Shown here: positions 42,426 to 58,727 of the stretch, one piece after another
How positions within the stretch are numbered: the stretch's first letter is position 1
How the letters are laid out: each line of letters starts with the position of its first letter
Assembly (NCBI GenBank): GCA_964575955.1
Contig: CAZNTG010000008.1
Span: 1-58,727 of the forward strand
Reading direction: 5' to 3'
Length of the DNA stretch: 58,727 bases
From: an uncultured Thermoproteaceae archaeon
GTDB taxonomy: Archaea > Thermoproteota > Thermoprotei > Thermoproteales > Thermocladiaceae
Notes under the pieces: generated by a model
Database searches by the model: none
Told to the model about the DNA's origin: nothing
Seen by the model: only the letters and a program-made list of their open reading frames with translations
Translations under genes and position numbers: made by a program

Positions 42426-42431
42426 CAACTC

Positions 42432-42944: not shown

Positions 42945-42953
42945 ACGTTACCG

Positions 42954-42987
42954 TAAACAAACCTTCTTTATAAACAAGGTTTGTTTA
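42954..42987. promoter_or_regulatory. 12-bp perfect inverted repeat flanking a TTTATAAA box
   Basis: TAAACAAACCTT-ctttataaac-AAGGTTTGTTTA just upstream of the 42944 start. Confidence 0.7.
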
Positions 42988-43016
42988 TGATCCATGATGT
43001 TTCGAGTGGACTTTCT

Positions 43017-43532: not shown

Positions 43533-43570
43533 GATCTACCTAATCTGAAGTTAGATTAATCGAACTTGGA

Positions 43571-44143
43571 CTAGATTTTCTTGACAATCCACCTGCTGTA
43601 CTTCCCGTTTTCCAGCTTTTCCACACACAGTCCAAATGGTGCCAACACATCGTTCAAGGCAGTCTGTACTTCATCTGCGTATCTGTTCAGTGCTGACGGC
43701 CTGTAGTTCTCATCGTCTAGAACTATCTGTAGCTTCCTGATAAATGCCTGTAGATCTCTTGCCTCTCTGAGGTAGCACTCTATGACTTCACTACACTTGT
43801 GGCCTACGTTAGACACATCATGCCCCAGTAGGCGAGGTACGTTGCGTGGTGGAGCTTTCTCACAGAGTATGGCTGCTATTCTCCTTGCAGCATGTACGAA
43901 CTGCAGGGTCTGGAATAGTTCAGCTACTCGCTTGAGCGTGTGGGTAGACCTAGGATCAGCCTCTAGCAAGTCAACTACTACGTCATCTCCAACTAGACTA
44001 CGCACACCCTGTATCAGCACTAGGCCAAGTCTTATTATGTCCGCATACGTGAGTTCCTTCTTCGCAGACTTGCTCAGCTCATGACGTATCTTGCTGAGAA
44101 TTTCATGTAACTCATCCGGCATCTTCACCGTGGTTACCATCAC
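43571..44143 (-). CDS. RHH-like N-terminus plus helical C-terminal domain
   Basis: TTVKMPDELHEIL...TYADIIR. Confidence 0.6.
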   Translation of the reverse strand: MMVTTVKMPDELHEILSKIRHELSKSAKKELTYADIIRLGLVLIQGVRSLVGDDVVVDLLEADPRSTHTLKRVAELFQTLQFVHAARRIAAILCEKAPPRNVPRLLGHDVSNVGHKCSEVIECYLREARDLQAFIRKLQIVLDDENYRPSALNRYADEVQTALNDVLAPFGLCVEKLENGKYSRWIVKKI

Positions 44144-44243
44144 AATATGCTGTGCCTAGCTCTTCTTTAAATGCCAACCCTGTAGTCGATTAAGAGCGGA
44201 AGGCTTTATAAGTGGGTATACTAACAGTATCCATGGACGGAAT

Positions 44244-44984
44244 ATGGGCAAGTCATGTATTCAAGTCCTAAGGGAGTTGTATAGTATTCTCGTAAAGCTG
44301 AGAGATAAGGATCTTGTAACGCGTGAGGATCTTCAGAGAGTTAGGAAGCTGCTGGAAGAGACTGCCAAGAGCACGTACATCACAATCTCGCTGAGCCGTT
44401 ACCGTGAGCTATGTGATGTCTGTCCTAGCCCTGAGGAGCTCAGCAGATGTCTCAAATTCGTGAAAGAGCTTCTGGAGGAAATCGAGACTGAGGTCCCAGT
44501 CCCTGGATATGCGTTGGTGAAGTACATTCGCAGGGTGGAGCAGTATCTGACCGAGGTTGAGCGTAGGAGAACCGTAGTGTCTCGCCGCCTCTATGAGGAG
44601 GTCGCTAAAGAGCGTGATGAGCTCAAGAGGCGTGTTGTCGAGCTTGAGCGTGAGGTTGAGCTTCTCAGGAGGCTCGAGGACACGTATGTTAGGCAGGTTG
44701 TTGAGCTTCTAGACGAGAGGGAGAGGCTTCTACACGAGCTTGAGCAGGCGAGGATGCTCATGTCCAAGTACAGGACACTGTACGAGACCTACCTCAGCCT
44801 ATGCATGTGCCTCGCATGTGCAGCATCTAGACTCTTGGAGGAGAATGCTAGACTGTGCGAGGAGGCTCACCACCTCAGGACTGAGGTTGAGATGCTTAGA
44901 GAGGTGCTGAACGTGGTGAGGGAGACAGTGTCTGACAGGGCTAGGAGGAGGATCCTAGAGAAGGTGAGGAAGACCCTACAGTGA
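44244..44984 (+). CDS. Coiled-coil protein
   Basis: Long heptad-rich E/R/L sequence. Confidence 0.75.
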   Translation: MGKSCIQVLRELYSILVKLRDKDLVTREDLQRVRKLLEETAKSTYITISLSRYRELCDVCPSPEELSRCLKFVKELLEEIETEVPVPGYALVKYIRRVEQYLTEVERRRTVVSRRLYEEVAKERDELKRRVVELEREVELLRRLEDTYVRQVVELLDERERLLHELEQARMLMSKYRTLYETYLSLCMCLACAASRLLEENARLCEEAHHLRTEVEMLREVLNVVRETVSDRARRRILEKVRKTLQ

Positions 44985-44988
44985 GGCC

Positions 44989-45225
44989 ATGAGGCTAGTC
45001 GAGAAGATTGTCAAGGAGACACGTGCCAGAGCAATGATGAGCATCTTGACCAAGCTCATCGACCTGCTAAATGGCTTAGCAGCACTTACGCTGCTCGACA
45101 AGGATGTTGATACCACACTGAGGATCCTGGACATGCAGCATAGCCTAATCAAGATGCTGCAAGACAAGTGGACTCTCCTGCAAGAACTTGAGGACATGGA
45201 AGAGGACGAACAACCCCCATCCTGA
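44989..45225 (+). CDS. Small helical hypothetical protein
   Basis: Follows the coiled-coil gene closely. Confidence 0.55.
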   Translation: MRLVEKIVKETRARAMMSILTKLIDLLNGLAALTLLDKDVDTTLRILDMQHSLIKMLQDKWTLLQELEDMEEDEQPPS

Positions 45226-45348
45226 ACATCCATTCTTAAAGCTTTGAGAACGTCCATTCTTAACGTCTTAAGAATGGGGCTTGAGAAAGCCCACGGCCGT
45301 GTAGGACCATTCTTAAGGCTTTGAGAATGGAGGTTCAGGATGGGGGTT
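45212..45348. repeat. 39-bp inverted repeat enclosing three CCATTCTTAA-N4-TTRAGAA palindromes
   Basis: Arms 45212-45250 and 45310-45348 (4 mismatches); units at 45230, 45254 and 45307. Confidence 0.9.
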
Positions 45349-45379
45349 TGAGAAAGAGGGACGTGTTTTGAACCTGGGG

Positions 45380-45643
45380 CTAGACGTGTGGCACTGTTAG
45401 GAAGAAGGCCAGCATGAGCCAGAGGAGGCTAAGTATAAACAGTATTAGCAGTATCAGCCTGCCCTTGCTCACCTTAGCCTCTTCTCGATTCACTGAGCTT
45501 CTCGTAATTATCCTCCAGTAGGCTGCTGAGGGAACACCATCTTCCTCCTCTTCGCGCTTCTTCCTCTTTCTACGCTCCTCCTCTTCCTCTTCCATCATCT
45601 GTAGCATTATTTCGTAATCTATCTCCTCTCTCCATCTTCTCAT
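45380..45643 (-). CDS. Small charged protein with C-terminal TM
   Basis: Poly-E/K/R tract and hydrophobic tail. Confidence 0.55.
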   Translation of the reverse strand: MRRWREEIDYEIMLQMMEEEEEERRKRKKREEEEDGVPSAAYWRIITRSSVNREEAKVSKGRLILLILFILSLLWLMLAFFLTVPHV

Positions 45644-45649
45644 GCTATT

Positions 45650-47080
45650 CTACTTCTCTGGTGCTTCCTCTAGTCTCTTTCTCTCTAATCTCTGCTGTAC
45701 CTGCTGCACAATTTCTCTCTTCCTGGAGTAATATTCTGCTGCTGTGAATCTTATTCCTGCTTCAGCAGCTATTACTAGGTCCAGGAAGTTGAGTGGTGTG
45801 AATTTCTTCCACATTACTACTGCCACTGTTACTAGTGGTGTTATTGATCCTAGTGCTGCGAGTATTAGGAGGGTTGGTGCCTGTATTAGGAGTGCATTCA
45901 GTCCCTGTATGGCATCTAGTGCAATTTTCTGTGCTAGTGCACTATAGTTCACGTGGCAGTGGAATAGCCATCCAAAGATGTTGCACTTGACGTACTCTGC
46001 GGCTAGGCTTGCAGCGGCGGCTGCTGCATGTAGGAGAGTCTTGACTCCCCATGCAGCAACCTCACCTGCATGTACATACATTCCACCTATCAGCTGTGTT
46101 ACCACTGCACCTAGGAGGGTGCCAACTAGCAGTCCCCAGAACGTGCCTTCTATCGCAATGCCGAGACTGCGTAATGCGCGTATACGTACCTCCTGAAGTG
46201 CGATGCCTATCGGTAGGCAGATCTGCATTATCAGTGCAATGAGCAGTTTCAGATAGAGCATGAGTGCTACAAATCCTGTAGTTATGATGTGTAGCTGCAA
46301 TATCGATCCTGGAATCTTGCTCACGGCTGGGATGATGATGCCTGCAAGCGGCACCAAGAGTGGCAGTACTGTCAGCACGGTCATGATTCCCCACGCGACA
46401 AATCCTGCATAGAAGACATTCCAGTTCGTGACTGTGAACACAAGCTGGTTCCAGACGGATATTATGCTTGGCAGCAGGACTAGGAGGATGCCCGCAACAC
46501 AGCACTTTATCAAGAGTCCTCCCGATCTTCTAAACGCCTCGGCTGGGTCTCTCCCACTCGTGATCTCTCCAACAATGCTCCACAGGGAGACTGCTGCTAG
46601 GAACGCTATGACGCTTGCATTTACGAGGGTCACAGCTCCACGTGGCCCTAGCCAGCTGCTGGGCGCGAAGCACCTCAACTCTGGGACTCCAACAAAGATC
46701 TGCTGAATGATGTCTGGACAGACTCCTGTACCCGTGGGCACGGGTAGGAACGTGACGTTTGTAGCATTACCTGTAATAGATGTGTTTAGAATGTTTATGA
46801 ATGTTGAGACTGTGCCTGCGGTAGATGCAATACTCTTAACGCTCTTCACAATGAGCGTGTTCGTTCTGTCAAGCTTCTTCGATATGTTCATTAGAAGCCT
46901 ATTCTCCTCCTCTAACAGCTTAACAATCTTGTCTAGACGCTGCAGTATTGGCTTAACGTTAACCTCACACTTACAGTGACATACACACACGACCTTGGTC
47001 ACATTGCTACTATGGGCAATCCCCGACATGACTAGCAGAGCTAGGACAGCTAGGACAGATATCAGAGCCAGCCCACGCAT
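45650..47080 (-). CDS. Polytopic membrane protein, VirB6/TrbL-like topology
   Basis: ATG at 47080; signal peptide, coiled-coil, then many TMs including ..QICLPIGIAL. Confidence 0.55.
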   Translation of the reverse strand: MRGLALISVLAVLALLVMSGIAHSSNVTKVVCVCHCKCEVNVKPILQRLDKIVKLLEEENRLLMNISKKLDRTNTLIVKSVKSIASTAGTVSTFINILNTSITGNATNVTFLPVPTGTGVCPDIIQQIFVGVPELRCFAPSSWLGPRGAVTLVNASVIAFLAAVSLWSIVGEITSGRDPAEAFRRSGGLLIKCCVAGILLVLLPSIISVWNQLVFTVTNWNVFYAGFVAWGIMTVLTVLPLLVPLAGIIIPAVSKIPGSILQLHIITTGFVALMLYLKLLIALIMQICLPIGIALQEVRIRALRSLGIAIEGTFWGLLVGTLLGAVVTQLIGGMYVHAGEVAAWGVKTLLHAAAAAASLAAEYVKCNIFGWLFHCHVNYSALAQKIALDAIQGLNALLIQAPTLLILAALGSITPLVTVAVVMWKKFTPLNFLDLVIAAEAGIRFTAAEYYSRKREIVQQVQQRLERKRLEEAPEK

Positions 47081-47099
47081 AGGAGTGGAGAAAAGAAAA

Positions 47100-47252
47100 G
47101 GCGGGGAGAATGCCCCCCTTCTCCTCATCTCGATGATCCTCTTCATTTTTACATCCGTCCTGTCGGGATGAGCCCCATTATCGGGCTTCACCTATCTGTG
47201 TCCCGGGGGGCTGGGCCGCCTCGGTTCATTGGAGACCTCCCCGAGGCGGTCT
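47100..47252 (-). ncRNA. GC-rich structured leader/RNA upstream of the VirB6-like gene
   Basis: CTTAAAA box ~30 nt upstream of hairpin CCGCCTCGG/CCGAGGCGG; parts are repeated at 55855 and 58101. Confidence 0.45.
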
Positions 47253-47370
47253 ACAGAGAGCTCTCGAAGCTATCTTTTAAGTCCTTTTCTTAGTTGTCTC
47301 GGCTTATAGGTGTATTATGCCGAGTGCAGCTTGGGTGGATCGAGTAGTATATCGTCTATCTGTCTTAAAG

Positions 47371-47811
47371 TCATGGCAGCGCTAGGACTGCGTACTCGTT
47401 GTCAATCATCACAAAGTTTAGTTCACGTAGTGTTTTGCCTAGTAGCTTCTTCTCGGTCTCGTCTGTGCGTACGGTGTGTAGGTACACTGTCCTGACGTTG
47501 TAGTGTATCTTGAGGTCATCAAGAACGTACTTGAGTAGCTTAACGTATAGCTCAGCTATGTCACACCAGTAGTCTAGTATCAGCGCTGTCTCAGGTTGTG
47601 GGTAGCCGTACGTCCAGACCTTTGCCTCGCCAATAATGTTGCCATTAACAAACCTGTAGTGCAGCTCAGTTACACTATGCAAGTCACGTGGCAGTACGCT
47701 ACTATGCAGCTCAAGGTCCAGCTGCGTAACCTTGTGTATACGCTTCCTGAGGTACACCATGACACCATCAACAGCTGCTATCGGTACAGCCCGAGCTCCG
47801 TGGGGAGCCAT
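47371..47811 (-). CDS. Hypothetical protein, weakly GNAT-like (start may be 47760)
   Basis: Plausible globular ORF; ...LRELNF C-terminus. Confidence 0.55.
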   Translation of the reverse strand: MAPHGARAVPIAAVDGVMVYLRKRIHKVTQLDLELHSSVLPRDLHSVTELHYRFVNGNIIGEAKVWTYGYPQPETALILDYWCDIAELYVKLLKYVLDDLKIHYNVRTVYLHTVRTDETEKKLLGKTLRELNFVMIDNEYAVLALP

Positions 47812-47872
47812 GCTGAACCGCAAGTTTTAAGGACAGGGACAGAGCTTAATAACGACCTTCAATCCTATAAGA

Positions 47873-47920
47873 CCATTCTTAAAGTTTTGAGAAGACCATT
47901 CTTAAAGACGTTAAGAGTGG
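47873..47920. repeat. Two tandem CCATTCTTAA palindromic units
   Basis: CCATTCTTAAagttTTGAGAA and CCATTCTTAAagacgTTAAGAGTGG. Confidence 0.85.
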
Positions 47921-47954
47921 TGGGGTATTTAACCTGTCTAGACCTATCAACAAG

Positions 47955-48095
47955 ATGAGGATCAGGTTGGAGAGAGTGAATGATAGGGTAGTAACGATAT
48001 GCGAACTTGAGAATTTTGACCAAGACATCGTGCAGCTGGTCGAGCTGCTAAAAGCGAGGAGATATCGCAAACACATCAAAATAATCATAGAGTGA
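47955..48095 (+). CDS. 46-aa hypothetical protein
   Basis: MRIRLERVNDRVVTICE...; TATTTAA box upstream. Confidence 0.35.
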   Translation: MRIRLERVNDRVVTICELENFDQDIVQLVELLKARRYRKHIKIIIE

Positions 48096-48140
48096 GAAAA
48101 AGGAACACAAGAAAGAGCGGAGATCTTTAAGTTGTGTAGG

Positions 48141-48353
48141 CTAGTCCCAGGGTCTACATGTGTCGAAGAGCACTATTTTGCCCCTGTCCTTGACGCACAT
48201 TGCGATATCTCTCGCATATATGCTGACTTCGAGGTAGCTTCTCCTCGATATTATCGATCCTACACTTGTGTACTTGTCGTCCTTTGCCAGGCGTATCTTG
48301 ACCATGCTGAGTGGTGCGGTAAGTATCTTCTGACCCTCTACCAGCAGCATCAC
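48141..48353 (-). CDS. Small hypothetical protein
   Basis: ORF downstream of the KaiC-like gene; GAGGTG before ATG. Confidence 0.4.
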   Translation of the reverse strand: MMLLVEGQKILTAPLSMVKIRLAKDDKYTSVGSIISRRSYLEVSIYARDIAMCVKDRGKIVLFDTCRPWD

Positions 48354-48431
48354 CTCATCGCCGTAGTAGCGTAGTACGAGGTTAGCACCTACACGCTTGT
48401 CAGTTTTTGAGCCTAGGCCCGGGGAAGGGGG

Positions 48432-49448
48432 TCACTGTACTGGCTCTAGTATGAGCTTGCTCATGTCGCCTTCCTTAGCGAAGTCTATCCTGAACAGGTA
48501 GTGCTTGATCGCTGTCATCCTTGCCTTCTTTATTGCGAGGTAGCGCTCTAGCTTTTTGCTTGTCTTGACGTCGCTCATCCACGTCTCCATTACGACGTCT
48601 GCAATGTGCTCGGCTCCGAAGCCGAAGAGGCCCTTGGTCGTGGCTGCGTATTGGCAGGTCAGTAACGCCGTGATGTTATTCCTGTGGTAGGTAAGCTTCA
48701 GCTGGTAGCTGTATTTGCGTGCCATTGCTGGCTTATCAACCCAGAAAGTTGACATTGAGTCTATGATTAGGCGTATATGTTGACCCCTCTCAACCTCAAG
48801 AACCTCATAAGCCTTGTCTAGCGCATATATCAGCGTGTCAATACTCCATGGAGCGTAGATCTTCCTGCTCGTCTTCTTTGTCCTGCTCTCCTTTTCCTCC
48901 CTCTCCTCCTGCATGGCAAGCTTAGCTACGCGACTCAGACCGAAGAGGTCTATAACAACGATGTCAGGTGTCTTACTAGGCTTCTCAAAAGTCCACTCCT
49001 TGTCTTTGCGATCCCACTGTACGACCTCTGCAAGGTTCAGGATCTTGAACTGCATGAAGTCTATCCCGAACTGTCTTGCCTGTGTAACAATGTCATAGAA
49101 CTCCTGCTCAGTAGTGACGTAGATGACCTTGTCATCCCCCGCTATGAGACCAGCAGCTGCGAAGTGAATCGCTAGGATACTCTTACCAGTACCCGGCTCA
49201 CCACCAATAACAACCCAACTACCCTTAGGAACACCACCCTCAAGAGCATCATCAAGCCTCTCTATCCCAAAGCTCACTCTGGTGACCTTGACCTTCCCCT
49301 CCCCTATCTCTTCCCTACCCTTCTTGACCTTCCTGCGCTTGGTCTTCTTCTCGGTACCCTCCTCCTCGACCTCTTCCACAACTATGCCCTTCTCCTCAGC
49401 AACATCGAGCCCCGTCTTGAACTCGATTTTCTCGGACCTCTCCGTCAC
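48432..49448 (-). CDS. KaiC-domain ATPase, PAE1156-like subfamily, with acidic/basic N-terminal extension
   Basis: GGEPGTGKS, IDSMSTFWVDKPAMARKYSY, EHIAD, KKARMT; GTG at 49448 chosen because the upstream sequence is hairpin-rich. Confidence 0.85.
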   Translation of the reverse strand: MTERSEKIEFKTGLDVAEEKGIVVEEVEEEGTEKKTKRRKVKKGREEIGEGKVKVTRVSFGIERLDDALEGGVPKGSWVVIGGEPGTGKSILAIHFAAAGLIAGDDKVIYVTTEQEFYDIVTQARQFGIDFMQFKILNLAEVVQWDRKDKEWTFEKPSKTPDIVVIDLFGLSRVAKLAMQEEREEKESRTKKTSRKIYAPWSIDTLIYALDKAYEVLEVERGQHIRLIIDSMSTFWVDKPAMARKYSYQLKLTYHRNNITALLTCQYAATTKGLFGFGAEHIADVVMETWMSDVKTSKKLERYLAIKKARMTAIKHYLFRIDFAKEGDMSKLILEPVQ

Positions 49449-49610
49449 CTCTCCCCGGGCTGGAAGGCCCGGGGTTTCTTTCATCCTCTGTGCGGGCTCT
49501 CTCACCTTTTTGAGACCCGCATGATCAGGCATCATCTGTCAGTCCCCGGGGTGTGGGGTACCCCCAGACTCGGGCAATGCCCTCATCGTCTGGGGAGACA
49601 GACACCTCGC
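49449..49610 (-). ncRNA. Structured 5' leader with kink-turn
   Basis: ccccagac-GAT-GA-gggc-att-gccc-GA-gtctgggg plus two further GC hairpins; CTTAAAAA box upstream. Confidence 0.6.
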
Positions 49611-49707
49611 ATTTACCACAGGCTGAAGGATTTTTAAGACCATGTGACAATGCTCCTAATAGTGAACTTCTCAAGATCGAGACGCCGTTTTAACTCGTGT
49701 ATAGCTG

Positions 49708-49753
49708 GTCCCCGGAGGGGTGTGTCTCCGTGGGGGTTCCCGATGAGGGGGGT
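49708..49753 (+). ncRNA. Candidate small GC-rich RNA
   Basis: TTTTAA box at 49688; hairpin; contains TCTCCGTGGGGGT. Confidence 0.35.
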
Positions 49754-50002
49754 CTACTCCTCTGCTGGTATTATGATTACCCTAAACCTGTCATAGTTCT
49801 CGAGGTGTTTCGGTACTTGGACTATGATTAGCTTGGCTTTCTGTCTCCCACCCTTGGACACGCGTAGATATGTCTTGCAGCTTGGCCACATCACTGCTGG
49901 TCCTCTAACAACTAGTCCTCTAGATCTTTCGAAGACGTACGCTTCCTCAAGCTCGATGTACTTCCTGTTTGGTGCCTCTCTCGTCTTCACTTTCAACACC
50001 AT
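49754..50002 (-). CDS. Small beta-rich hypothetical protein
   Basis: 82-aa ORF divergent from parB. Confidence 0.55.
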   Translation of the reverse strand: MVLKVKTREAPNRKYIELEEAYVFERSRGLVVRGPAVMWPSCKTYLRVSKGGRQKAKLIIVQVPKHLENYDRFRVIIIPAEE

Positions 50003-50123
50003 GTCTCGGTCTAGGAGTTATAAGGCTCGCATCTCCAGGACGTGCACGTGTACGATACGTGTCAATGGACATAGAGTCCACGTCGCGACTTGACACAGCC
50101 CCCTTTTAATTGGCCTATAAGTC

Positions 50124-51545
50124 ATGTTCTTAACACACCTCAGTCCCAGGGAGGTCCTAGAGAAACTCAAGCCTCCACGTGAGGCAGTTTCCGACCCTAC
50201 GCCTGACGAGGACCTTGTCGAGTCTATCAGGAACGTTGGTGTCAAGGTTCCAATTATTGTAGATAGGAATTACGTTATCATTGATGGTGTTAGGAGGTTC
50301 AACGCCATTAGGAAACTGCTACAGGAGGGGGTCGAGCTTCCCCTAATACCTGTCCTAATCTTGAACGATGTTGACTATGAGGCAAGTCCAGAAGAGGCGC
50401 TGCTATGTGCGTTCTTAGTTAACAGGTACAGGAGGGGTGGACGTGATGATCACTTCAACACGGACCTAATCGCGGATCTGCTGCTAAAGCTTGCACTCAG
50501 GATAGCTAAGCCAGTAGAGAGGCAGGACCTTAGGAGAGGGACAATACCTGAGAGGGTACGTAGAGAGCTTGCAAAGCTTACAGGTCTATCACGTACACAT
50601 GTCTACGAGCTTCTTCAGAAGGCTCTTGCTAGGAGGAGGCTTGGTGTAAAGTCACCATGTACTACTGCTCAGGTTTGTCAGAGTTGCAGAGTTGAAAGTT
50701 CCACAGCACATCCTGAAGATGTTTCAACTCTGCAGACACATTCTATTCCTCGTCATGTCTCTGTGCAGAGTCTGCGCGTTGGTGAACATGGCTGTGGTGT
50801 AATACATGGTCGGTGTACAATTGGTACGCGACCATCAGGAAGGGGTGAGCATCAGGAAGGTGAGGACCTTAGTAGAGTCGTAGATGCTGTCTGTACTGCA
50901 GCTGAGAGACTTGGCAGTGGCTTTCTTAGAAAGGTTGCGCTAGGCGAGCTACCTACCAGGGTAGCTGAGGAGGCTGGAAGGATCTTGAATAGGAGCACAC
51001 GCACAGTCTTCGAGTACTGGTACAGACACCGTGATGCTATTGTTGAGGAGGCTAGGAGGAGGTACCTTGCCGACCTCAAGGTTCCCAAATCCAAGGCTGA
51101 GCTATTTCTGAGACTACCTGAAGATTTCATCAGATGGCTCAGACAGCTGTCGCCTTGGCTCTTGAAGAGGGTCGTAGAGCACGTTGATCCTGACGTTGTT
51201 GAGCAGGCAGCTAGGCTATTTCAGCATGGTCGTGAACGTGATTCTCTCCGCATTCTCGTAGAGGCTGCACGTGGCAGAGACATCTCCAGGGTAGACCTTC
51301 CCGACCATGTCATGGACATGGTTATCGAGCTTGGGACCTATGTCGATCTAGATCTTGCTCTTAGAGCCATAGTTGAGGTTGGTGCTGCATTTCTACGACT
51401 ACTACAGCACAAGGCAAGGTCCGTACCTGATCCAAGAACATTCTGCGAGTCAGCCATCAGGCAGGTCCTGTCACTATCCTCGATCAAGGATGTTCAGGAC
51501 CTGTGGCATGAGGTGAGGGATATCCTCGACATGGTGAAGCCATGA
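50124..51545 (+). CDS. ParB/Srx N-terminal domain plus HTH protein
   Basis: LVESIRNVGVKVPIIV...IIDGVRRFNA; ELAKLTGLSRTHV. Confidence 0.85.
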   Translation: MFLTHLSPREVLEKLKPPREAVSDPTPDEDLVESIRNVGVKVPIIVDRNYVIIDGVRRFNAIRKLLQEGVELPLIPVLILNDVDYEASPEEALLCAFLVNRYRRGGRDDHFNTDLIADLLLKLALRIAKPVERQDLRRGTIPERVRRELAKLTGLSRTHVYELLQKALARRRLGVKSPCTTAQVCQSCRVESSTAHPEDVSTLQTHSIPRHVSVQSLRVGEHGCGVIHGRCTIGTRPSGRGEHQEGEDLSRVVDAVCTAAERLGSGFLRKVALGELPTRVAEEAGRILNRSTRTVFEYWYRHRDAIVEEARRRYLADLKVPKSKAELFLRLPEDFIRWLRQLSPWLLKRVVEHVDPDVVEQAARLFQHGRERDSLRILVEAARGRDISRVDLPDHVMDMVIELGTYVDLDLALRAIVEVGAAFLRLLQHKARSVPDPRTFCESAIRQVLSLSSIKDVQDLWHEVRDILDMVKP

Positions 51546-53734
51546 CCTGGCACATATTTGATGCAAAGACGCTCGAGCCTGTGAAGCCGAGGACAGCGGA
51601 TGGGAGGTCACAGGCAGATATTGCACATGAGCTTGCTGAGCTGCTGGACAGCTACGACGTCGTCATCCTAGAGGCATCGCCTGGAAGTGGCAAGACCCTG
51701 ATAGTGCTGTCGGCATGCTTCGAGCACTGTCCAGATGGGAAGATAGTCTACAACACGGGGCCCTACAGGGCAAGACAGGTACAGGTAGCTAGAGACTTCA
51801 CCGAGAGGTTCCTCGTTGGTGATGGTGAGAAGTTCTGGACCTTTGGCATAGTTTGGGGTCGCGATAACTTTAGATGTCCAAGAACTGGACTGTGCTGCAG
51901 TGAGGCACCGTGTAGAGACAGATCTAGAAGACACGAGTATCCCTGCTATGCACCCCCCGTCCGTGGCAGATCTAGGGTAGGTGAACGTAACATAATTGCA
52001 GAGTGGGTCGGCATAGATGGCTCTACCTGGTGTCTACCAGAGACTGACTGTCCATACTACAGGCAGTTCACTGCCTACCAGGACAGTGATGTCGTCGTCA
52101 TGAACAGCTTCATGTGGCTATGCGAGACTCTGCTTGGGAGGAAGGTGCGTGCAGACGTGGAGGTGATCGACGAGTTCGATGCTGTTCTACAGGAGGTCAC
52201 GCCTAGGATAGTCATCTGTGAGAGCCATCTCAAAATGCTGAGAAGTCTCATAGATGCACTGCCAGACAGGGCAAGACGCGAGCTTGAGCAGGAGCTCAGA
52301 AGGCTCAGGAGGGCCCTACTGCACAGCTACAGGACTGAGGACGTTGTCGAGCTCGTATATGCATATCAGAGAGTTGTGCTTGACCTAGCTACACTCTTCC
52401 CCGACGAGTTTGCCGATGATGAGGAGCTGAGGCAGTGCCTAGAGACTGCACGTAAGCTACGTGCAGTACAGCTCAGCGTTGACAGTTACATACCTGTCAG
52501 AAGAGGCACATGTCTAGTCCTCACATGTGTAGACTCTGAGAAACATGTCAGGAACATACTGTCAATGTGTGGGAGAAAGAAGATCCTCATCTCAGCAACC
52601 CCACCACCTGAGCCAGTTCTCGAACATGTCTATGGGTTGAGAGACTACGCGTACATACGTGCTGGACGTGGACTCAGGGGGCTAGTCTACCTAGGAGGCA
52701 CATTTGAGATATATGTGTACGGTAGGCTACTCAGAGCTGGCAGACGTGACCACGTTGAGTCCTACAGGAGGGCTCTGAGAGACACGATTAGGCTAGCGAG
52801 GATGGATGGCTACGAGCCTAGGCTAATAGTTGCAACATCTAGACTACACCTAGACTACCTGTACATTGACCTCAGCATCCCCATCGATTGGAATGGGAGG
52901 AAGCTACAGGAGTTCATAGATGGCAAGCTTACGGAAGTTGCAACTACGAGAGCATACAGGGCAATTGACCTGCCAGGCGACAAGTGTCGCAGCATTATAA
53001 TAACGAAGTGTCCATGGCCTGACCTTGAGGATCCGTGGTGGGTAGCCGCGTCTAAGAAGCTTGAGAAGGTTGGGTACAGTAGAGACCTCATTGAGCACCT
53101 GTACAGAGAATTGACAAAGCACAACCTGCTCCAGATAATTGGACGTGCACTTAGGAGTGAGGACGACTGGGTCTGGCTATACAGCCCCGACAAATTTGTA
53201 CTTGAGCTGCTGATAGAGCTCGAGCGTGAGGGCAAGGTAAGGATAGTCAGAGATGTCGTACCAGAGACGCGCAGAATAATTCAGGAGGTCCTGAACAAGA
53301 TCGAGAAGGGAGACATAGCAAGCATTGAGATACCTGACCAACAGCTTAGGGCAAAGGTCAGACACATCCTCGAGACGTACTTCTACTGCACAGTACATGA
53401 AGTCGAGAACTACCTCATAGCAGTACACAAGTCGAGACAGAGCGACCTTGAGCAAGAACTCAGGAAACTCATACAAGACCTCGAGAGTCAAGTAGACGAA
53501 AGTCCCAATCACCAACACCGTCACAACAACCTAGATAATAGTAATCTAGTAAATAATAGTAGTAATGAAAATAATAGTAATCGAGGCACAGCGAGGCTAA
53601 TTGGCCCTGACGATCTCGTGATCGTGTTCTTCAGGTCTGACTGTGGCGTGTATAGGCGTGGCGATGTTGCTGCTGTGCCTAGGGACCTGCTAGAGAATTG
53701 TCCTGATGTTGATGTTCTGGATCTTGGGTCTTAA
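51542..53734 (+). CDS. XPD/Rad3/DinG-family SF2 helicase
   Basis: SPGSGKT, Fe-S-type Cys (NFRCP, CPYY), IDEFD, ISAT, QIIGRALRSEDD. Confidence 0.88.
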   Translation: MTWHIFDAKTLEPVKPRTADGRSQADIAHELAELLDSYDVVILEASPGSGKTLIVLSACFEHCPDGKIVYNTGPYRARQVQVARDFTERFLVGDGEKFWTFGIVWGRDNFRCPRTGLCCSEAPCRDRSRRHEYPCYAPPVRGRSRVGERNIIAEWVGIDGSTWCLPETDCPYYRQFTAYQDSDVVVMNSFMWLCETLLGRKVRADVEVIDEFDAVLQEVTPRIVICESHLKMLRSLIDALPDRARRELEQELRRLRRALLHSYRTEDVVELVYAYQRVVLDLATLFPDEFADDEELRQCLETARKLRAVQLSVDSYIPVRRGTCLVLTCVDSEKHVRNILSMCGRKKILISATPPPEPVLEHVYGLRDYAYIRAGRGLRGLVYLGGTFEIYVYGRLLRAGRRDHVESYRRALRDTIRLARMDGYEPRLIVATSRLHLDYLYIDLSIPIDWNGRKLQEFIDGKLTEVATTRAYRAIDLPGDKCRSIIITKCPWPDLEDPWWVAASKKLEKVGYSRDLIEHLYRELTKHNLLQIIGRALRSEDDWVWLYSPDKFVLELLIELEREGKVRIVRDVVPETRRIIQEVLNKIEKGDIASIEIPDQQLRAKVRHILETYFYCTVHEVENYLIAVHKSRQSDLEQELRKLIQDLESQVDESPNHQHRHNNLDNSNLVNNSSNENNSNRGTARLIGPDDLVIVFFRSDCGVYRRGDVAAVPRDLLENCPDVDVLDLGS

Positions 53735-53749
53735 AACTGGCTAAGGAAC

Positions 53750-54511
53750 ATGACCCCCACGGAGAGGAGACTGCCACTGTTACATGAGGTTGTTGATCTT
53801 GATGAGACTAAGCGCAGCATAGATAGGCTGTCTAGGAGAGAGGTCCTGCAGATTCTTGGTGATGACTTTGTGCAGCATGATGGTCATGTGTTTCATATCG
53901 TGCATATCAGGGATAGGGTGCCCGTTACCGTGCTGTCAGCAGTAGCTGAATGTCCATGGACAACGGTTGTTGCTAGGCTACTCGCAGAGAGGTATGGTGC
54001 GGAGGAGAATACGCTATACGTGCCTGTTAACCCGCACGCACTACTGTATGGCCGCCTCATACATGAGAAGTACCTGACATTTCTCGAAGAGGAGCTTAAC
54101 ATACCTGTCGAGGTTGAGCTTGAGGCTGAGGCTCAGATCAATGGTAGGTCTGTAAAGATTGTCGGTAGGGTAGACGCATTAATGCCAGGCAGTGGACGCA
54201 TAGTTGTCCTAGAGGTCAAGACTGGCAGCAAGATATCTCTAAGACACATGGTGCAGGTGTGGACCTATGTCCACATGTTGAACATGTACGTAGAGGACAA
54301 GATTGCTAAACCACTCTTCCTAACGCCCAGAGGCTTTGAGAAAGTCGACAAGTACTACGCCTGGAGAGACATCCTACAGCTAATCTCTCTCGTACTATAC
54401 ATCATCGATAAGGATGGAGACGTCACATGGGACAGAAAGAGAAACTGCCCCAGAACAAGATGCCCATACTATCCATGGTGCCCAAAGGCAGTTAAACTAG
54501 ACCTGGCGTAA
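53750..54511 (+). CDS. Stand-alone Cas4-like exonuclease (start uncertain)
   Basis: ECP, GRLIH, GRVDAL, LEVKTG, QVWTY, CPRTRCPYYPWC. Confidence 0.85.
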   Translation: MTPTERRLPLLHEVVDLDETKRSIDRLSRREVLQILGDDFVQHDGHVFHIVHIRDRVPVTVLSAVAECPWTTVVARLLAERYGAEENTLYVPVNPHALLYGRLIHEKYLTFLEEELNIPVEVELEAEAQINGRSVKIVGRVDALMPGSGRIVVLEVKTGSKISLRHMVQVWTYVHMLNMYVEDKIAKPLFLTPRGFEKVDKYYAWRDILQLISLVLYIIDKDGDVTWDRKRNCPRTRCPYYPWCPKAVKLDLA

Positions 54512-54677
54512 TCCTAAACAAATCCAGCCTCCTTTTTCTTCATCTCCCTATGCATAATCTAGTCGGTCTAGTCCTACCTACAGCTGCGCTAGGACTACTA
54601 AGCGTAGCATACGTGTGTTTATATAAACGCATCTCCGGGTTGCAAGGGATATATAGTGTGTAGACACTGCTTACTTA

Positions 54678-55895
54678 ATGCGCATAAAATCGGCTGTTGA
54701 AGTTCTGTCTCTCGAGCTTGAATCCTCACCTGAACTATATGATATATTTAGGAGGATTGTGGAAGCTAAGGTACGTGTTATATACTCAACAAAGATGTAC
54801 AATGTACCTACACTAGTCCACATGTACAAAAGTGGTGAACTATACGTTGATCCTGATCTCAAGCGTGAGTATACCTGGTCCATTGTCAAGGCTTCACGTT
54901 TCATCGAAAGTCTAATACTTGGACTTCCAATACCACCAATATTTGTCATCTACCTACATGATAGGGGGCTTGTCGTAGATGGTTTTCACAGACTTGAAAC
55001 TTTGAGGCTATTCTACAGTAATGAGCTTAAACTAAGGGGCATAGTACTGCGAGAGCTTGAGGATAAGGTCTACACAGAGCTGGATGAGAATCTTCGCAAT
55101 AGGCTAGATCGTACAGCTATTCCAGTAGTTGAAGTCCATGTAGAACCTCCAGATCCCTCTACCACAATGTTCGTGGTCTATGAAATATTCAGGAGGTTGA
55201 ACCTCGGCGCCAAGCCCTTAACCACCTTACAAGTAATTTTCTGTGGCCTACCTACACCTGCAGTGCGTGCAGTAAAGGAGCTTCTACAGGATGAGAATAT
55301 GCAGACACTGCTCAATCCGAGACTCTCAGAGACACGTAACATGATGGACAGGTATCTGGTTCTAATGCTCATGGTCTGCATATACTGGAACAGGCTGATG
55401 AACTTGACATCTGGGGGAAAGGTAGCACATGCTAGAGCAATAGCTAGATTCCTAAGAGCTTCCGAAGAAGAGGTCGCCAAGGTGAAGGAACGAGTTAAGG
55501 AACTTGCAGAACTTGCACTGAGGATAGGCCTGTCTCGTCGATACTTCCTCTTGACGACATACGGCCTCTCCCGCAGATATACAATCATATCGTCTACACT
55601 TTTCTTAGTGATAATGTATCTCATTCATGAACTTGAGTTACATCTAGGCAAGGATGTCCTCATCGAGCACAGGAGCACAGTACTACACTCAATAGAGAGA
55701 TTCTTCCGTGAGACAACTAGAAAGTTCGTGATAGATGATAGGGAGGTTGACCTAAAGACCTTAATTGCATACATTAGTCGGCAAGGTGGAGACAAGCTAC
55801 TCCACGTGCTCTACAACACATTTAAGCAACATGTGCTACACTCACTCAGCAGCGAAGAAAAGGACTTAAAAGATAGCTTCAAGAACTCTCTATAG
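54678..55895 (+). CDS. DUF262 (GmrSD-N/ParB-like) domain protein
   Basis: REYTW, FIESLILGLPIPPIF, VVDGFHRL, IFRRLNLGAKPL. Confidence 0.85.
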   Translation: MRIKSAVEVLSLELESSPELYDIFRRIVEAKVRVIYSTKMYNVPTLVHMYKSGELYVDPDLKREYTWSIVKASRFIESLILGLPIPPIFVIYLHDRGLVVDGFHRLETLRLFYSNELKLRGIVLRELEDKVYTELDENLRNRLDRTAIPVVEVHVEPPDPSTTMFVVYEIFRRLNLGAKPLTTLQVIFCGLPTPAVRAVKELLQDENMQTLLNPRLSETRNMMDRYLVLMLMVCIYWNRLMNLTSGGKVAHARAIARFLRASEEEVAKVKERVKELAELALRIGLSRRYFLLTTYGLSRRYTIISSTLFLVIMYLIHELELHLGKDVLIEHRSTVLHSIERFFRETTRKFVIDDREVDLKTLIAYISRQGGDKLLHVLYNTFKQHVLHSLSSEEKDLKDSFKNSL

Positions 55896-55911
55896 ACCGC
55901 CGATAATGGGG
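55855..55911 (+). repeat. Internally deleted inverted copy of the 47173-47291 promoter/leader
   Basis: 47 bp with 3 mismatches to revcomp of 47245-47291, followed by CCGATAATGGGG matching revcomp of 47173-47184. Confidence 0.85.
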
Positions 55912-55955
55912 GTTCCAGTAGGAGTAATTACTAAAGAGGTTTATGCATACTACTC

Positions 55956-56333
55956 TTGGATAATATGTCAAGCAGCGGTGTTAGGAAGATAGAGGATGAC
56001 ATTAGTAAGAAGCTTGAGGAGATTTACAAATTAATAAAGGACGTGCTTGAGCTTGTACAGTACACAATTGCTAAGTGGATGGAGATACAGTCAAAGTATG
56101 GTGAGGTTATCGATGTGTTGACAAGCCCCGACGAGTTTAGGAACTTTGTCAATAAACTGGACGATGCGTCAGCGGGGAAGCTTCTCAGGATGATAATGCA
56201 GATCTACATGATCGTACAGAAGATGACGAGGCTAAGCGATCTTAGTGAAGAGGAGCTTAAGAACTTGAAAAAAGATGTTGCCGAGCTATTAGAGAGAGTA
56301 CGGGAAGAACTTAAGACAAGGACAAGCTCGTAG
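55956..56333 (+). CDS. Helical hypothetical protein
   Basis: Amphipathic helical ORF. Confidence 0.65.
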   Translation: MDNMSSSGVRKIEDDISKKLEEIYKLIKDVLELVQYTIAKWMEIQSKYGEVIDVLTSPDEFRNFVNKLDDASAGKLLRMIMQIYMIVQKMTRLSDLSEEELKNLKKDVAELLERVREELKTRTSS

Positions 56334-56353
56334 AATGTTATGTCTCTCCAACA

Positions 56354-57094
56354 CTACACATGTGTCGAACCTAGCCTCTCCCTCTCAAGTACTTTCCAGC
56401 ACTTACAAAATATCTTGTGTACTATGTCGATTGTTCCCTCAATAATGTAAGATACTAGTGCTATTCTTGGTCTGCTAGCTGAAAGTGCTAGCTCATACAC
56501 CAACCTTCTCACTCTCCGTACATGCTTTATGACCCACTTGATACGTTTCTCGATGTCTCTCTTTGGTCGATCCTGTTCATAGTAGTAGTCATGTAGCTCT
56601 TCACCAATTCTATACATGAGTCCGATCCACCCAATCTTCTCATCCTTCTTCAAGATTCCCCTCTTCCTTAAACTACGCAGATGTTCTAATACTCTGTCCA
56701 CGACAATTCTTGTCACTCTATGTCCAGTCGGTACGATGCCCCACAGTAGTGTTGAGAGAGCTTTCACACTATCAAGCACTGCTCTCCAAGCTTCTTCACA
56801 AGCTTCGTCGAGCATACCCTCCTGCAACAGCTTTACCGCCTTTTCAATAGTTGAGCAAGCCCTCTCTGCATACCTCACGGCGGGTAGTGAGGAACGCTCA
56901 ACATCACCTCTACGTCGAAGCTCCACAGGAGGAGCCGTGTAGATTGGCCTGACAGCTGAGATAACACGTGGAAAGGCTAGTTGACGACAGAGAAGCTCGC
57001 TAAGCACAACACCTGGAAACTCTGCAACAACCCTAGCATCAGACACAAGCACACTAGCCCCTCCACGAGTCTCCACACTGGAGGACACACCCAT
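56354..57094 (-). CDS. PaREP1/HEPN-superfamily protein
   Basis: ACEEAWRAV..VKAL, H, ELHDYYYE. Confidence 0.75.
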   Translation of the reverse strand: MGVSSSVETRGGASVLVSDARVVAEFPGVVLSELLCRQLAFPRVISAVRPIYTAPPVELRRRGDVERSSLPAVRYAERACSTIEKAVKLLQEGMLDEACEEAWRAVLDSVKALSTLLWGIVPTGHRVTRIVVDRVLEHLRSLRKRGILKKDEKIGWIGLMYRIGEELHDYYYEQDRPKRDIEKRIKWVIKHVRRVRRLVYELALSASRPRIALVSYIIEGTIDIVHKIFCKCWKVLERERLGSTHV

Positions 57095-57182
57095 ACTCCA
57101 CGTGTGACACAGCTAATAATACATGTCGATCCCCGCACATACACACGTGACCCCCTCCCCATCCCGAAACATCTTGAAAAAA

Positions 57183-57272
57183 ACCCCGCGGCGGGACCCC
57201 CCGGGGCGGCCCAACGAGAACCCACTCACTGCTCCGTGATGAAGGACTTTGTGGCTGATCCCGCCGCGGGGC
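57183..57272 (-). ncRNA. Candidate ~90-nt stable RNA closed by a 13-14 bp GC stem
   Basis: CCCCGCGGCGGGA/TCCCGCCGCGGGG; on the minus strand ATATTAAC lies ~30 nt upstream and a T7 run lies immediately downstream. Confidence 0.6.
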
Positions 57273-57360
57273 TGTGAAAAATCTTCACATACATGTTAAT
57301 ATGTGCCTAGGCTGGTAGACATGGCACATCTATCAGTATCCTGAACCTTGCCACCCCACT

Positions 57361-58074
57361 CTACGAGACACTCCACCTCCCCCTTCCCAGTGGCTCCTCT
57401 CTTCTAATACCTAGCCTACGAACATCTTCCTGGATCTTTCTGACCTCGCTGTACAGCTCATCTCCAAGTACATCCCTAAGAGCATCTTCGTAGGACATCT
57501 CAGGGTATAGACCGAGAAGTTTCAAGACGTCTCTCAGAGACATGTCGAGCAGAAGAACCTTCTTATCATCATCTAGGTTAAGCAGATCGTATACCAGGTC
57601 CCTAATTTCTAGACCGTAGATCTTGGCTAGGTTATGTAGCCTACGAACGTAGTCTTCACATACCTCGGAGATGCCATACTCATCACATAGAGCAACAATC
57701 TTCTTCACAATGTCCGACCTAGAGAACCGGTCGTGTTCTAGTCTTAGCGTGACAACATCCTCATCACATGCATGTACTTTCACGTCCGTGATATCTCTAA
57801 GATGACGTGATATATCGTGGTCATACGGTCCATACTTGTATATCTTGAAGTTGAATAGCTCAACCATCGGACTAATCTCAAGCTTTGAACCATCTCTCGT
57901 CAACGTGGCAGCACACAGAAGCTTCTGTATGGAAGTCTCATTGACAGTCTTCAGAAGCAGGATAGCAAGCTCAGTAAACAACCTACGCAGCCTAGCCTTA
58001 ACATCCTCAGGCAAACCCCTAACACGCCCAAACAAGACAACCTCCACCACACACCGAGCTAATAAACATACCAT
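57361..58074 (-). CDS. Panacea/SocA (DUF4065)-like antitoxin-domain protein
   Basis: IQKLL...FKIYKYGPYDHDI. Confidence 0.55.
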   Translation of the reverse strand: MVCLLARCVVEVVLFGRVRGLPEDVKARLRRLFTELAILLLKTVNETSIQKLLCAATLTRDGSKLEISPMVELFNFKIYKYGPYDHDISRHLRDITDVKVHACDEDVVTLRLEHDRFSRSDIVKKIVALCDEYGISEVCEDYVRRLHNLAKIYGLEIRDLVYDLLNLDDDKKVLLLDMSLRDVLKLLGLYPEMSYEDALRDVLGDELYSEVRKIQEDVRRLGIRREEPLGRGRWSVS

Positions 58075-58100
58075 TCACCTAAAAAGCCTGACCCCCGTGA

Positions 58101-58133
58101 CCCCCTTCTCCTCATCTCGATGACCCTCCTCAT
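58101..58133. repeat. 33-bp direct repeat of 47114-47146
   Basis: CCCCCTTCTCCTCATCTCGATGAyCCTCyTCAT, 2 mismatches. Confidence 0.85.
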
Positions 58134-58147
58134 CTTGGATATTCCCC

Positions 58148-58175
58148 GAACGTCCATTCTTAACGTCTTTAAGAG
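58148..58175. repeat. Sixth CCATTCTTAA palindromic unit
   Basis: GAACGTCCATTCTTAACGTCTT is identical to 45248-45269. Confidence 0.85.
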
Positions 58176-58236
58176 TTAGTTGTAATTTCTGGGGTTCGTG
58201 TTTTATTTATATTTTCCTCCTTTTCTTGCCTTTTCT

Positions 58237-58488
58237 GTGAGTTGGAGGTTAGTTGTGAAGAGGTCATTTATTAGAGATTTAAAAGGGCTTGACCCAAATG
58301 TTAGGGATAGGATAATTGAGGCTATTGATGAGATTGTGAGAAATCCATACGTGGGAAAGAAGCTTGACAATTTTTACAGTTGGAGAGTTGGTGATTACCG
58401 TATCATCTATACCATAGATGAGGAGAGGCGTACAGTTGTGCTACTGTGGGTTGGTCATAGAAGATCCATCTACAGGAGATTGAGATAG
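58237..58488 (+). CDS. relE: RelE/ParE-family toxin
   Basis: GKKL..YSWRVGDYRIIY.ID...VGHRRSIY; GTG at 58237. Confidence 0.92.
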   Translation: MSWRLVVKRSFIRDLKGLDPNVRDRIIEAIDEIVRNPYVGKKLDNFYSWRVGDYRIIYTIDEERRTVVLLWVGHRRSIYRRLR

Positions 58489-58680
58489 CTAGTAGTCCTC
58501 CTCCACAAGCTTCTTGAGATCTCTCACACTTTCTATAGACACCTCCTCTTCCCGCAACCTCCTCTCCAACTCAGGCCTAAGCAACTCAACCTCCAGCCTA
58601 TCAATGAGATCTATAATCTCCTCAGCATTCCTCAATATCCTATTCACAATACTGTAAATCGCATCAACATCCAGAGACAT
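58489..58680 (-). CDS. Small acidic protein, possible RelB-like antitoxin
   Basis: 63 aa, acidic C-terminus EEEVSIESVRDLKKLVEE; convergent with relE. Confidence 0.45.
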   Translation of the reverse strand: MSLDVDAIYSIVNRILRNAEEIIDLIDRLEVELLRPELERRLREEEVSIESVRDLKKLVEEDY

Positions 58681-58727
58681 CAAGAACAATAATAACACCA
58701 AGACCATAATAGGCATTACGCCCAAGA

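Follow-up and report, generated by a model that had tools for sequence, protein, structure and literature searches.

A conserved archaeal operon of a ParB-like gene, an XPD/DinG-family helicase gene and a solo Cas4-family nuclease gene on foreign DNA

Among the described systems closest to the locus treated here, FmaDinG (EndoDinG), a PD-(D/E)XK nuclease fused to a DinG helicase, is reported to act as a coordinated nuclease–helicase with 5'–3' unwinding (PMC13650095). Cas4 is described as a 5'–3' iron–sulfur (Fe–S) exonuclease (PMC3466216). Archaeal viruses and plasmids commonly carry Cas4 genes, whose role there is unknown (PMC5704561). Pairs of TFIIB and ParB genes have been reported from integrative and conjugative elements (ICEs) of thaumarchaea (PMC6563490). 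In a survey of the ParB-CTPase fold, the main text refers to helicases just twice, and none of 12 passages from it describes a pairing of this kind (PMC12704722). Here we analyse an operon in which a ParB-like gene, an XPD/DinG-family helicase gene and a Cas4-family nuclease gene follow one another, a triad that our literature searches on ParB, Cas4, XPD and DinG combinations did not find described. It lies in a window of 58,727 nucleotides (nt), which is the whole of contig CAZNTG010000008.1 (C8) in the metagenome-assembled genome (MAG) of an uncultured Thermoproteaceae archaeon (GCA_964575955.1, our G000; 15 contigs, 1.52 Mb, 94.7% complete, archaeal).

The triad is a conserved operon on mobile elements of hot-spring archaea that make up a rare family, and its products most likely form a DNA-end-processing machine of the element that is not part of CRISPR. 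The order of the genes, their motifs, their recurrence in other genomes and the foreign origin of the DNA around them can be read directly; how the three proteins would work together is argued more cautiously below.

The operon and its three proteins

The operon and the signals that appear to close it, the latter two being readings of the sequence, are as follows.

50124..51545, + strand: ParB-like gene, 473 amino acids (aa), called as an open reading frame (ORF)
51542..53734, + strand: XPD/DinG-family superfamily 2 (SF2) helicase gene, 730 aa, ORF call
53750..54511, + strand: Cas4-family Fe–S PD-(D/E)XK nuclease gene of the solo or mobile genetic element (MGE) type, 253 aa, ORF call
54525..54545, + strand: stretch rich in T behind the Cas4 stop codon, where the transcription unit may end
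~54619, + strand: putative TATA-like TTTATATAAA ahead of the next gene

The stop codon of the ParB-like gene overlaps the helicase start by 4 nt (ATGA), and 15 nt separate the helicase gene from the Cas4 gene. With the T-rich stretch and the TATA-like box behind them, the three genes look like a single transcription unit, and because their order is conserved in other genomes the arrangement goes beyond chance. A sequence-only reading of this DNA had singled out three co-oriented, tightly spaced genes with intact motifs and with no primase, polymerase or cas1 nearby. We recover the ORFs on the + strand with exactly these boundaries, and none of the 27 ORFs scanned on the surrounding island encodes any of the three missing functions, a statement that holds for the assembled part because the island runs off the contig end.

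The helicase (P0002) scores 39.5 bits against Helicase_C_2 in Pfam (cut-off 25.3), and a profile built from 14 helicase sequences matches Sulfolobus acidocaldarius XPD (3crv, 9.6e-29) and Escherichia coli DinG (6fwr, 2.1e-19). Its AlphaFold2 model (predicted local distance difference test (pLDDT) 84.2, predicted template modelling score 0.78) is matched in Foldseek by DinG (2e-21), CasDinG (1e-19) and XPD (1.8e-19) over 590–700 columns; the FmaDinG structure 9kqh is also among the fold matches, over about 600–700 columns, and Hna and DdmD are weaker ones. The protein is thus modelled with the four-domain XPD/Rad3/DinG fold, including an Arch domain (an Arch-like helical insert). Motifs I (GxGKS/T), II (DExx, here DEFD) and VI (QxxGRxxR) are intact, and G48, G50, K51, D210, E211, D213, Q531, R535 and R538 are invariant or nearly so across the 14 sequences. 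In PADLOC the protein matches the typeIV_DinG model only (3.4e-20).

As four cysteines indicate, motor domain 1 probably contains an inserted Fe–S domain. Across the 14 sequences C112 and C170 never vary and C124 is kept in at least 90%, with C119 invariant in the six closest. C112 and C170 align with positions in the GRGRYVCP and ECPFF segments of E. coli DinG, which we take to be its first and last Fe–S ligand positions. Behind the core the chain continues into an extra folded C-terminal domain (~570–653) and a disordered tail rich in Asn, Ser and His. Helicases of the XPD/DinG family translocate 5'–3', and from this family knowledge the same polarity would be expected here.

The nuclease (P0003) passes the Pfam cut-offs for Cas_Cas4 (28.7 bits against 22.7) and PDDEXK_1 (34.9 against 22) and stays below that of the NCBIfam equivalog TIGR00372 (43.6 against 65), which makes it a member of the Cas4 family in the broad sense and not a CRISPR Cas4 equivalog. 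The residues of the RecB-type D..ExK and QxxxY motifs (D142, E155, K157, Q169 and Y173) are invariant in all five Cas4-like relatives, as are the Fe–S-type cysteines C68, near the N terminus, and C233, C238 and C244, near the C terminus. The nearest structures are SSO0001 (4ic1, 1.9e-5) and the Cas4-family exonuclease 4r5q, and in PADLOC the protein matches Cas4 models only. Among viral sequences it comes closest to the Cas4-like gene of Sulfolobales Mexican rudivirus 1 (E = 4e-5), with 32.5% identity across 46% of the query. As the island holds no cas gene and the protein has no similarity to the CRISPR Cas4 of the host, we place it in the solo or MGE type. A complex prediction for helicase and nuclease, run without controls, scored 0.00 and weighs neither for nor against binding.

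The 22 nt at the start of the nuclease gene (ACATGACCCCCACGG..., 53748-53769) recur almost unchanged at the start of two other island genes (36803-36824 and 37565-37586). This shared start encodes the N terminus MTPT(E/G), and the Cas4 relative P0155 likewise begins with MTPTER.

The ParB-like protein (P0001) carries an N-terminal ParB/Srx domain. It matches the PHROG family 'ParB-like partition protein' at 1.4e-10, and its nearest solved sequence is the pNOB8-like ParB-N domain 5k5d (E = 1.6e-5). An AlphaFold2 model from a six-row alignment (mean pLDDT 66.8) is confident for the ParB/Srx domain and a helix-turn-helix (HTH), at ~1–175, and for a helical domain at 245–385, with a disordered linker at 179–244 between them. 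Foldseek with this model ranks pNOB8 ParB-N first (E = 6e-4, probability 1.0), followed by bacterial ParB, KorB and Noc, and sulfiredoxin too is among the matches of the N-domain at probability 1.0. The sequence contains G55-V-R-R-F-N-A61 (GxRRxxA) and N-R-Y-R (NxxR), presumably the counterparts of ParB box II (GxxRxxA) and box III (ENxxR-like); the five family members with an N terminus all retain G..[RK]R and N..R at these positions.

A 174-aa protein encoded on the host chromosome shares this ParB-N and HTH core (PIIVDR..IIDGVKRY; G000:C6:524289-524675, or L089:1369-1893, minus strand). Its gene has native GC content and sits between aIF1A-like and TldD-like genes, and two short paralogs similar to it occur in G008, the related genome that carries the triad. 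The ParB-like protein of the element may derive from this chromosomal family.

Recurrence of the triad and the island that carries it

Matches to the helicase at E ≤ 1e-3 occur in 5 of 61 related genomes, the window's own included. In G008, which belongs to another genus of the same family, the order ParB-like gene, helicase, Cas4 is kept at protein identities of 37%, 44% and 42%, respectively, 3.3 kb downstream of a tyrosine integrase gene and a TnpB gene. In G003, from the window's genus, a 1-kb contig holds the end of a helicase gene followed by a Cas4 gene, 54% identical. Searching metagenomes with a six-row helicase alignment yielded 41 loci, three of which have a ParB-like gene directly upstream of the helicase: L010, which is from the G008 organism, and L011 and L012, whose contigs end before the Cas4 position. 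Wherever both genes can be seen (4/4 loci) they are separated by −4, 2, 6 or 2 nt, at identities down to ~25%, and this spacing makes ParB–helicase the tightest link of the triad. Two further relatives, P0154 (ParB-like, 48%) and P0004 (helicase, 45%), are both assigned to one 4,640-base contig, from which their adjacency may be presumed.

The family is small. A sample of 401 genomes from the phylum gave strong matches to each of the three proteins in G000 and G008 only, with a helicase fragment in G012, and among 1.84 billion representative sequences 282 match the helicase at E ≤ 1e-3 and 26 at E ≤ 1e-30. Locus searches with the single helicase sequence returned nothing from genomes, metagenomes or viral contigs, tblastn with the helicase found no match in 50,697 phage and 72,556 plasmid records, and neither the helicase alignment nor the Cas4 alignment brought up a relative in scans of IMG/VR. 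PADLOC (PADLOC-DB 2.0) has no model that matches the ParB-like protein and no system with the composition of the triad. The search for the triad in other genomes, which the sequence-only reading had set as a test, therefore came out in its favour, with a complete copy in G008 and partial ones in G003, L011 and L012; its expectation that no described viral module would match was likewise borne out in the phage, plasmid, IMG/VR and PADLOC collections and in the literature searched.

A nuclease also accompanies more remote relatives of the helicase. In a distant clade of the family, drawn from other metagenomes, 6 of the 41 loci have a different Fe–S PDDEXK_1 nuclease directly upstream, with one N-terminal cysteine and a CxxCx5C motif (Pfam E ~1e-32 to 1e-35); hmmsearch at E up to 1 detects no relation between these nucleases and the Cas4 family of the window. 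We computed a quick maximum-likelihood tree of 47 rows. The window and 11 representatives entered it together with those helicase ORFs from the loci that reached 480 aa (shorter ones were left out, fusions above 900 aa were trimmed to the final 700 residues, and L033 was labelled through its identity to L034). The ParB-linked helicases form one clade and the PDDEXK-linked helicases another, each with Shimodaira–Hasegawa-like approximate likelihood ratio support of 100. Most other relatives sit among housekeeping genes (Dus, PheRS, CoA ligase), and at L014 a PolB fragment and an ERCC4 nuclease gene precede the helicase. The linkage of helicase and Cas4 in three instances (G000, G008 and G003) is most simply read as a split nuclease–helicase, and the recurrent nuclease link in the distant clade strengthens this reading.

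In the window, the operon lies on a high-GC island of foreign origin. The features below are those of the island and its neighbourhood outside the operon.

35900..58727, no strand: high-GC (0.45–0.51) foreign island that carries the operon, ended by the contig end; from the GC profile
35962..36999, − strand: ParA/MinD-like ATPase gene at the left island edge, 13 kb from the ParB-like gene; Pfam CbiA 5.7e-6, PHROG ParA-like 1.6e-4
45225..45330, no strand: cluster of the island-specific 10-mer CCATTCTTAA (4/7 copies), a candidate protein-binding site; from motif counts
48432-49535, − strand: KaiC_arch_4 ATPase gene, divergent from the triad; 78% protein identity to a host gene on C3 (91936-92772)
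49754..50002, − strand: candidate small divergent ORF of 82 aa upstream of the ParB-like gene; a weak call
54678..55895, + strand: stand-alone GmrSD_N/NsnA-like (DUF262) gene; PADLOC NsnA 1.6e-43

At ~35.9 kb the GC content steps from ~0.29 to 0.45–0.51 and stays high to the contig end, in a MAG of ~33% GC that has no other 3-kb window above 0.42. Such an abrupt jump, on an island that ends a contig and is the only high-GC region of the MAG, is also what one would see if assembly or binning had wrongly joined the island, as DNA of a higher-GC relative, to this genome, and the KaiC-like gene, 78% identical to its C3 host counterpart, would then look as if it came from a related organism. We consider such a chimera very improbable: a 25,931-base Logan contig from sequencing run X1 crosses the junction without interruption (30000-36839), the depths to its two sides are similar (18.7 and ~22), and the junction falls in non-conserved intergenic DNA. 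The X1 contig does not count as independent support, because X1 may be the source sample, and run X2, from another study, has the host-side and island-side parts on short contigs only, so it was not counted for the junction. Given its 78% identity despite the difference in GC content, the KaiC_arch_4 gene looks like a capture from a related higher-GC archaeon.

Comparing the island with the G008 element, which are otherwise very divergent, the triad is the best-conserved block; other small ORFs are common to both at ~30% identity and in a different order. The GC content of the module follows that of its element (0.50 in the window, 0.35–0.38 in G008, 0.28–0.50 across the instances), which argues for long residence and not for recent cargo.

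The 10-mer CCATTCTTAA occurs seven times, always on the island and in intergenic DNA, against 0.21 copies expected. Besides the cluster, copies lie at 47873 and 47896 (47873-47905) and at 58154 (58154-58163), and at 45254-45277 it forms the perfect palindrome CCATTCTTAA-N4-TTAAGAATGG. No copy was found in the G008 element, and a link between these sites and the ParB-like protein is only an idea. In our boldest proposal, a ParB-type nucleoside triphosphate-dependent clamp loaded at palindromic sites would recruit helicase and Cas4, and the resulting site-directed resection machine would start the replication of an element with no Rep, primase or polymerase of its own. This is a long shot; if true, it would mean a new mode of initiation for MGE replication and the first defined job for the long-unexplained Cas4 proteins of MGEs.

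The same palindromic motif, dispersed over the island in the manner of operators or centromere sites, can instead be combined with the ParA-like gene at 35962-36999 and with the ParB-N and HTH architecture, which resembles that of partition ParB and KorB. The operon might then co-transcribe two unrelated functions, a partition or KorB-like ParB (perhaps working with that ParA-like protein) and a separate helicase–Cas4 unit for repair or recombination; the distant relatives of the helicase, which have a nuclease beside them but no ParB, would fit this. We judge this improbable, though clearly less so than a chimera, since the ParB-like gene and the helicase stay within 6 nt of each other in 4/4 instances at identities falling to ~25%, which is the tightest link of the triad, and no ParA gene adjoins the ParB-like gene in any of the four loci, the one in the window lying 13 kb away.

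Several further observations concern the island and its surroundings. The small divergent ORF at 49754..50002 has a counterpart at the matching position and orientation in three related loci, at an identity of just 19–21%. A + strand ORF at 49824-50093 was considered as an AspA-like adaptor and rejected, its translation being of low complexity and not conserved. Contigs of run X1 branch off at 35323, 35561 and 36810-37039, just before or inside the island boundary, and a 63-base piece (36813-36875) has ~2.5 times the depth; these loose ends suggest that strains differ here, perhaps by an empty site or a repeat. A stretch of 39 nt occurs twice at 90% identity, at the 5' end of the gene for a 513-aa polytopic membrane protein (47111-47149) and upstream of the gene at 57361-58074 (58098-58136, where CCATTCTTAA adjoins it), and may be a duplicated promoter or leader. 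Besides that membrane protein, the island encodes several small membrane proteins and two P-loop ATPases, one of them the KaiC_arch_4 protein. Within the host part, 24000-30500 has a GC content of 0.36–0.40, ORFs with no Pfam match and one degenerate copy of an island repeat family (27254-27300), and may represent another, earlier insertion of foreign DNA. In the G008 element, a further Cas4-like gene, shorter than that of the triad, lies ~2 kb downstream of the triad (213 aa, Cas_Cas4 8.2e-5; L008:18-659, on G008:C1 at ~275 kb), and the element also has an AAA_15/AAA_21 ATPase gene; no att-like direct repeats of at least 18 nt were found in the 35 kb around the G008 triad.

Possible roles of the operon

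The reading that we favour, at a rough probability of 0.45, is that the operon is a backbone DNA-processing module of the integrated element, serving its recombination, replication or maintenance, with the ParB-like protein as DNA-targeting or regulatory partner. Within a rare family of integrative elements from archaea of the Thermoproteales lineage, the operon would be a backbone component. Helicase and Cas4-type nuclease would make up a two-subunit nuclease–helicase, a split form of an EndoDinG-, Dna2- or AddAB-like machine, in which the helicase would unwind from a nick or an end and feed a strand to the nuclease. The ParB-type protein, translationally coupled to the helicase, would bind element DNA as a nucleoside triphosphate-dependent HTH clamp and position or regulate the machine; we assign it this role because its gene is the tightest partner and its architecture is that of clamp-type ParB and KorB. 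The output would be resected or unwound DNA for recombination-dependent replication, repair or maintenance of the element. In favour of this reading are the conserved gene order, the integrase gene near the G008 copy, the intact catalytic and Fe–S residues, the precedent of FmaDinG, the nuclease link in the distant clade, and the outcome of Pfam and PHROG scans, which recognised no Rep, primase or polymerase among the 27 island ORFs.

Several points weigh against this reading. The ParB-like protein reaches only 23 bits (E = 8.6e-5) against Pfam ParB_N, below the cut-off of 26.3, and in G008 the gap between helicase and Cas4 widens to 293 nt. There are only ~5 independent instances, all from one archaeal lineage. 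Among the 27 island ORFs, the Pfam and PHROG scans also found no integrase or capsid-like protein and no VirB4 or VirD4 gene, and the window has no tRNA or Rfam match; with no element hallmark gene found, the type of element (plasmid, ICE or virus) is not established. The island is truncated, and a conventional replication module may lie past the contig end. The genes that follow the triad, encoding NsnA-like/GmrSD_N, HEPN/PaREP1 and RelE/ParE-like toxin proteins, form the kind of neighbourhood expected of a defence gene. Finally, the physical coupling of the three proteins, the polarity of the helicase, the targeting role of the ParB-like protein and the biological role of the whole are points that we infer.

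That neighbourhood leads to the main rival, a defence or exclusion system in which the ParB-like protein or the helicase would sense foreign or aberrant DNA for the helicase–nuclease to degrade. Hachiman, DdmD and CasDinG are examples of helicase–nuclease defence systems with a similar logic. Apart from the neighbours just named (NsnA-like at 1.6e-43), the AAA_15/AAA_21 ATPase and second Cas4-like genes of the G008 element would suit defence, as would the similarity of the helicase to the PADLOC typeIV_DinG model (3.4e-20) and its weaker fold matches to Hna and DdmD; ParB/Srx domains, moreover, recur in conflict systems (PMC5512222). However, no PADLOC model covers the ParB-like protein and no known system has the triad's composition. 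Conservation of the triad does not extend to the defence genes beside it: the GmrSD_N/NsnA-like gene lies outside the conserved module, being absent after the triad in G008, and no other component of an NsnA system is recognisable next to 54678-55895. A triad that is the best-conserved part of two divergent elements and matches the composition of each suits a backbone better than swapped cargo, and for that reason we prefer the backbone reading, if narrowly, and hold defence to be rather unlikely, yet the strongest of the alternatives.

The sequence-only reading had also raised interference with spacer acquisition by the host, whose adaptation genes lie at the other end of the window.

175-2784: host csa1-cas4-cas1

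Together with NurA–HerA, the host genes csa1-cas4-cas1-csx1-cas6 fall within 175-8745. Nothing that we found points to such interference: BLASTP between the island Cas4 and the host CRISPR Cas4 gives E = 2.9, the island Cas4-like gene is always linked to the helicase and never to cas1 or cas2, and the island has no cas gene. Comparing the host CRISPR arrays with the island gave repeat-derived matches only and no spacer match at E ≤ 1 save one of 13 nt at chance level. That an element Cas4, helped by the helicase, perturbs CRISPR adaptation of the host would be in keeping with the csa1-cas4-cas1 module and six arrays of this host, with the anti-defence roles that have been proposed for MGE Cas4 (PMC5704561) and with a stretch of the island (40442-40457) that copies 16 nt from the 5' part of the host repeat. 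It is nonetheless highly unlikely, being pure speculation for a protein that has no similarity to the host Cas4 and whose conserved partners are a helicase and a ParB-like protein instead of Cas1 and Cas2. Type IV CRISPR was considered as well and rejected, there being no csf genes or array here and the Fe–S cysteines being retained.

The copy at 40442-40457 corresponds to the first 16 nt of the 24-nt host repeat (consensus of arrays on C6 and C12) and occurs once on the island, where by a rough estimate ~1e-4 occurrences are expected. It lies in AT-rich intergenic DNA just before the gene at 40508, and beyond the 16 nt the sequence departs from the repeat and runs into a TATA-like TTTATAAA. 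A lone remnant of a repeat, a decoy or chance could each explain the copy.

Comparison with known systems

The operon gives one MGE Cas4 two conserved partners and with them a testable hypothesis, namely that it is the nuclease subunit of an XPD-type helicase–nuclease. The combination of nuclease and DinG, recently characterised as a bacterial fusion, exists as a split operon in archaea, and a helicase partnership joins the growing list of uses of the ParB fold outside partition. The proposal of the sequence-only reading that this is a new replication or recombination module stands in part: the role fits the logic of a helicase–nuclease, and the triad is intact and on foreign DNA, whereas the word 'new' needs tempering because fused EndoDinG is already characterised (PMC13650095).

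The pNOB8 ParB (5k5a/5k5d) and bacterial ParB, KorB and Noc share with the ParB-like protein a ParB/Srx domain followed by an HTH and a place on mobile elements, and they give its best sequence and fold match; total length is presumably similar to that of pNOB8-type ParB. In contrast to pNOB8 ParB, the window gene has no adjoining parA and no identifiable AspA-like adaptor, a helicase gene comes next, and its C-terminal half is unrelated as far as visible. The TFIIB–ParB pairs of ICEs find a parallel at L011, where a TFIIB-zinc-ribbon gene lies just upstream of the ParB-like gene and hints at a plasmid- or ICE-like backbone, but no TFIIB gene adjoins the copy in the window or that in G008.

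For the nuclease, the likeness to MGE-Cas4 or solo-Cas4 is that of a Cas4-family gene on a mobile element and outside CRISPR loci (PMC5704561). The main text of that paper links Cas4-like genes to UvrD-like and YprA-like helicases, contains none of the terms XPD, Rad3, DinG and COG1199, and does not describe a conserved partnership with XPD-type and ParB-type proteins.

Dna2 and AddAB likewise join an Fe–S RecB/Cas4-like nuclease to a DNA helicase for end resection, but their helicase is of SF1 and not SF2 XPD-type, and they are cellular repair enzymes. Both serve as comparators in PMC13650095 and PMC5704561. CasDinG belongs to the same XPD/DinG family and provides the best PADLOC match and strong fold matches; however, it is described as having a degenerate module without Fe–S coordination (PMC13650095), whereas the window helicase keeps its cysteines, and no csf genes or array lie beside the operon.

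EndoDinG (Finegoldia magna DinG, 9kqh) likewise joins an XPD/DinG helicase that keeps its Fe–S domain to a Cas4/Dna2/AddA-like PD-(D/E)XK nuclease (PMC13650095). It is, however, one bacterial polypeptide with the nuclease at its N terminus and no ParB partner, whereas in the window the genes are separate, the nuclease follows the helicase and has a four-cysteine cluster of its own, and the whole sits on an archaeal mobile element. The operon is not a member of EndoDinG and at most works like it. What is new is a split, ParB-coupled and MGE-borne nuclease–DinG/XPD module; the nuclease–DinG fusion was already known.

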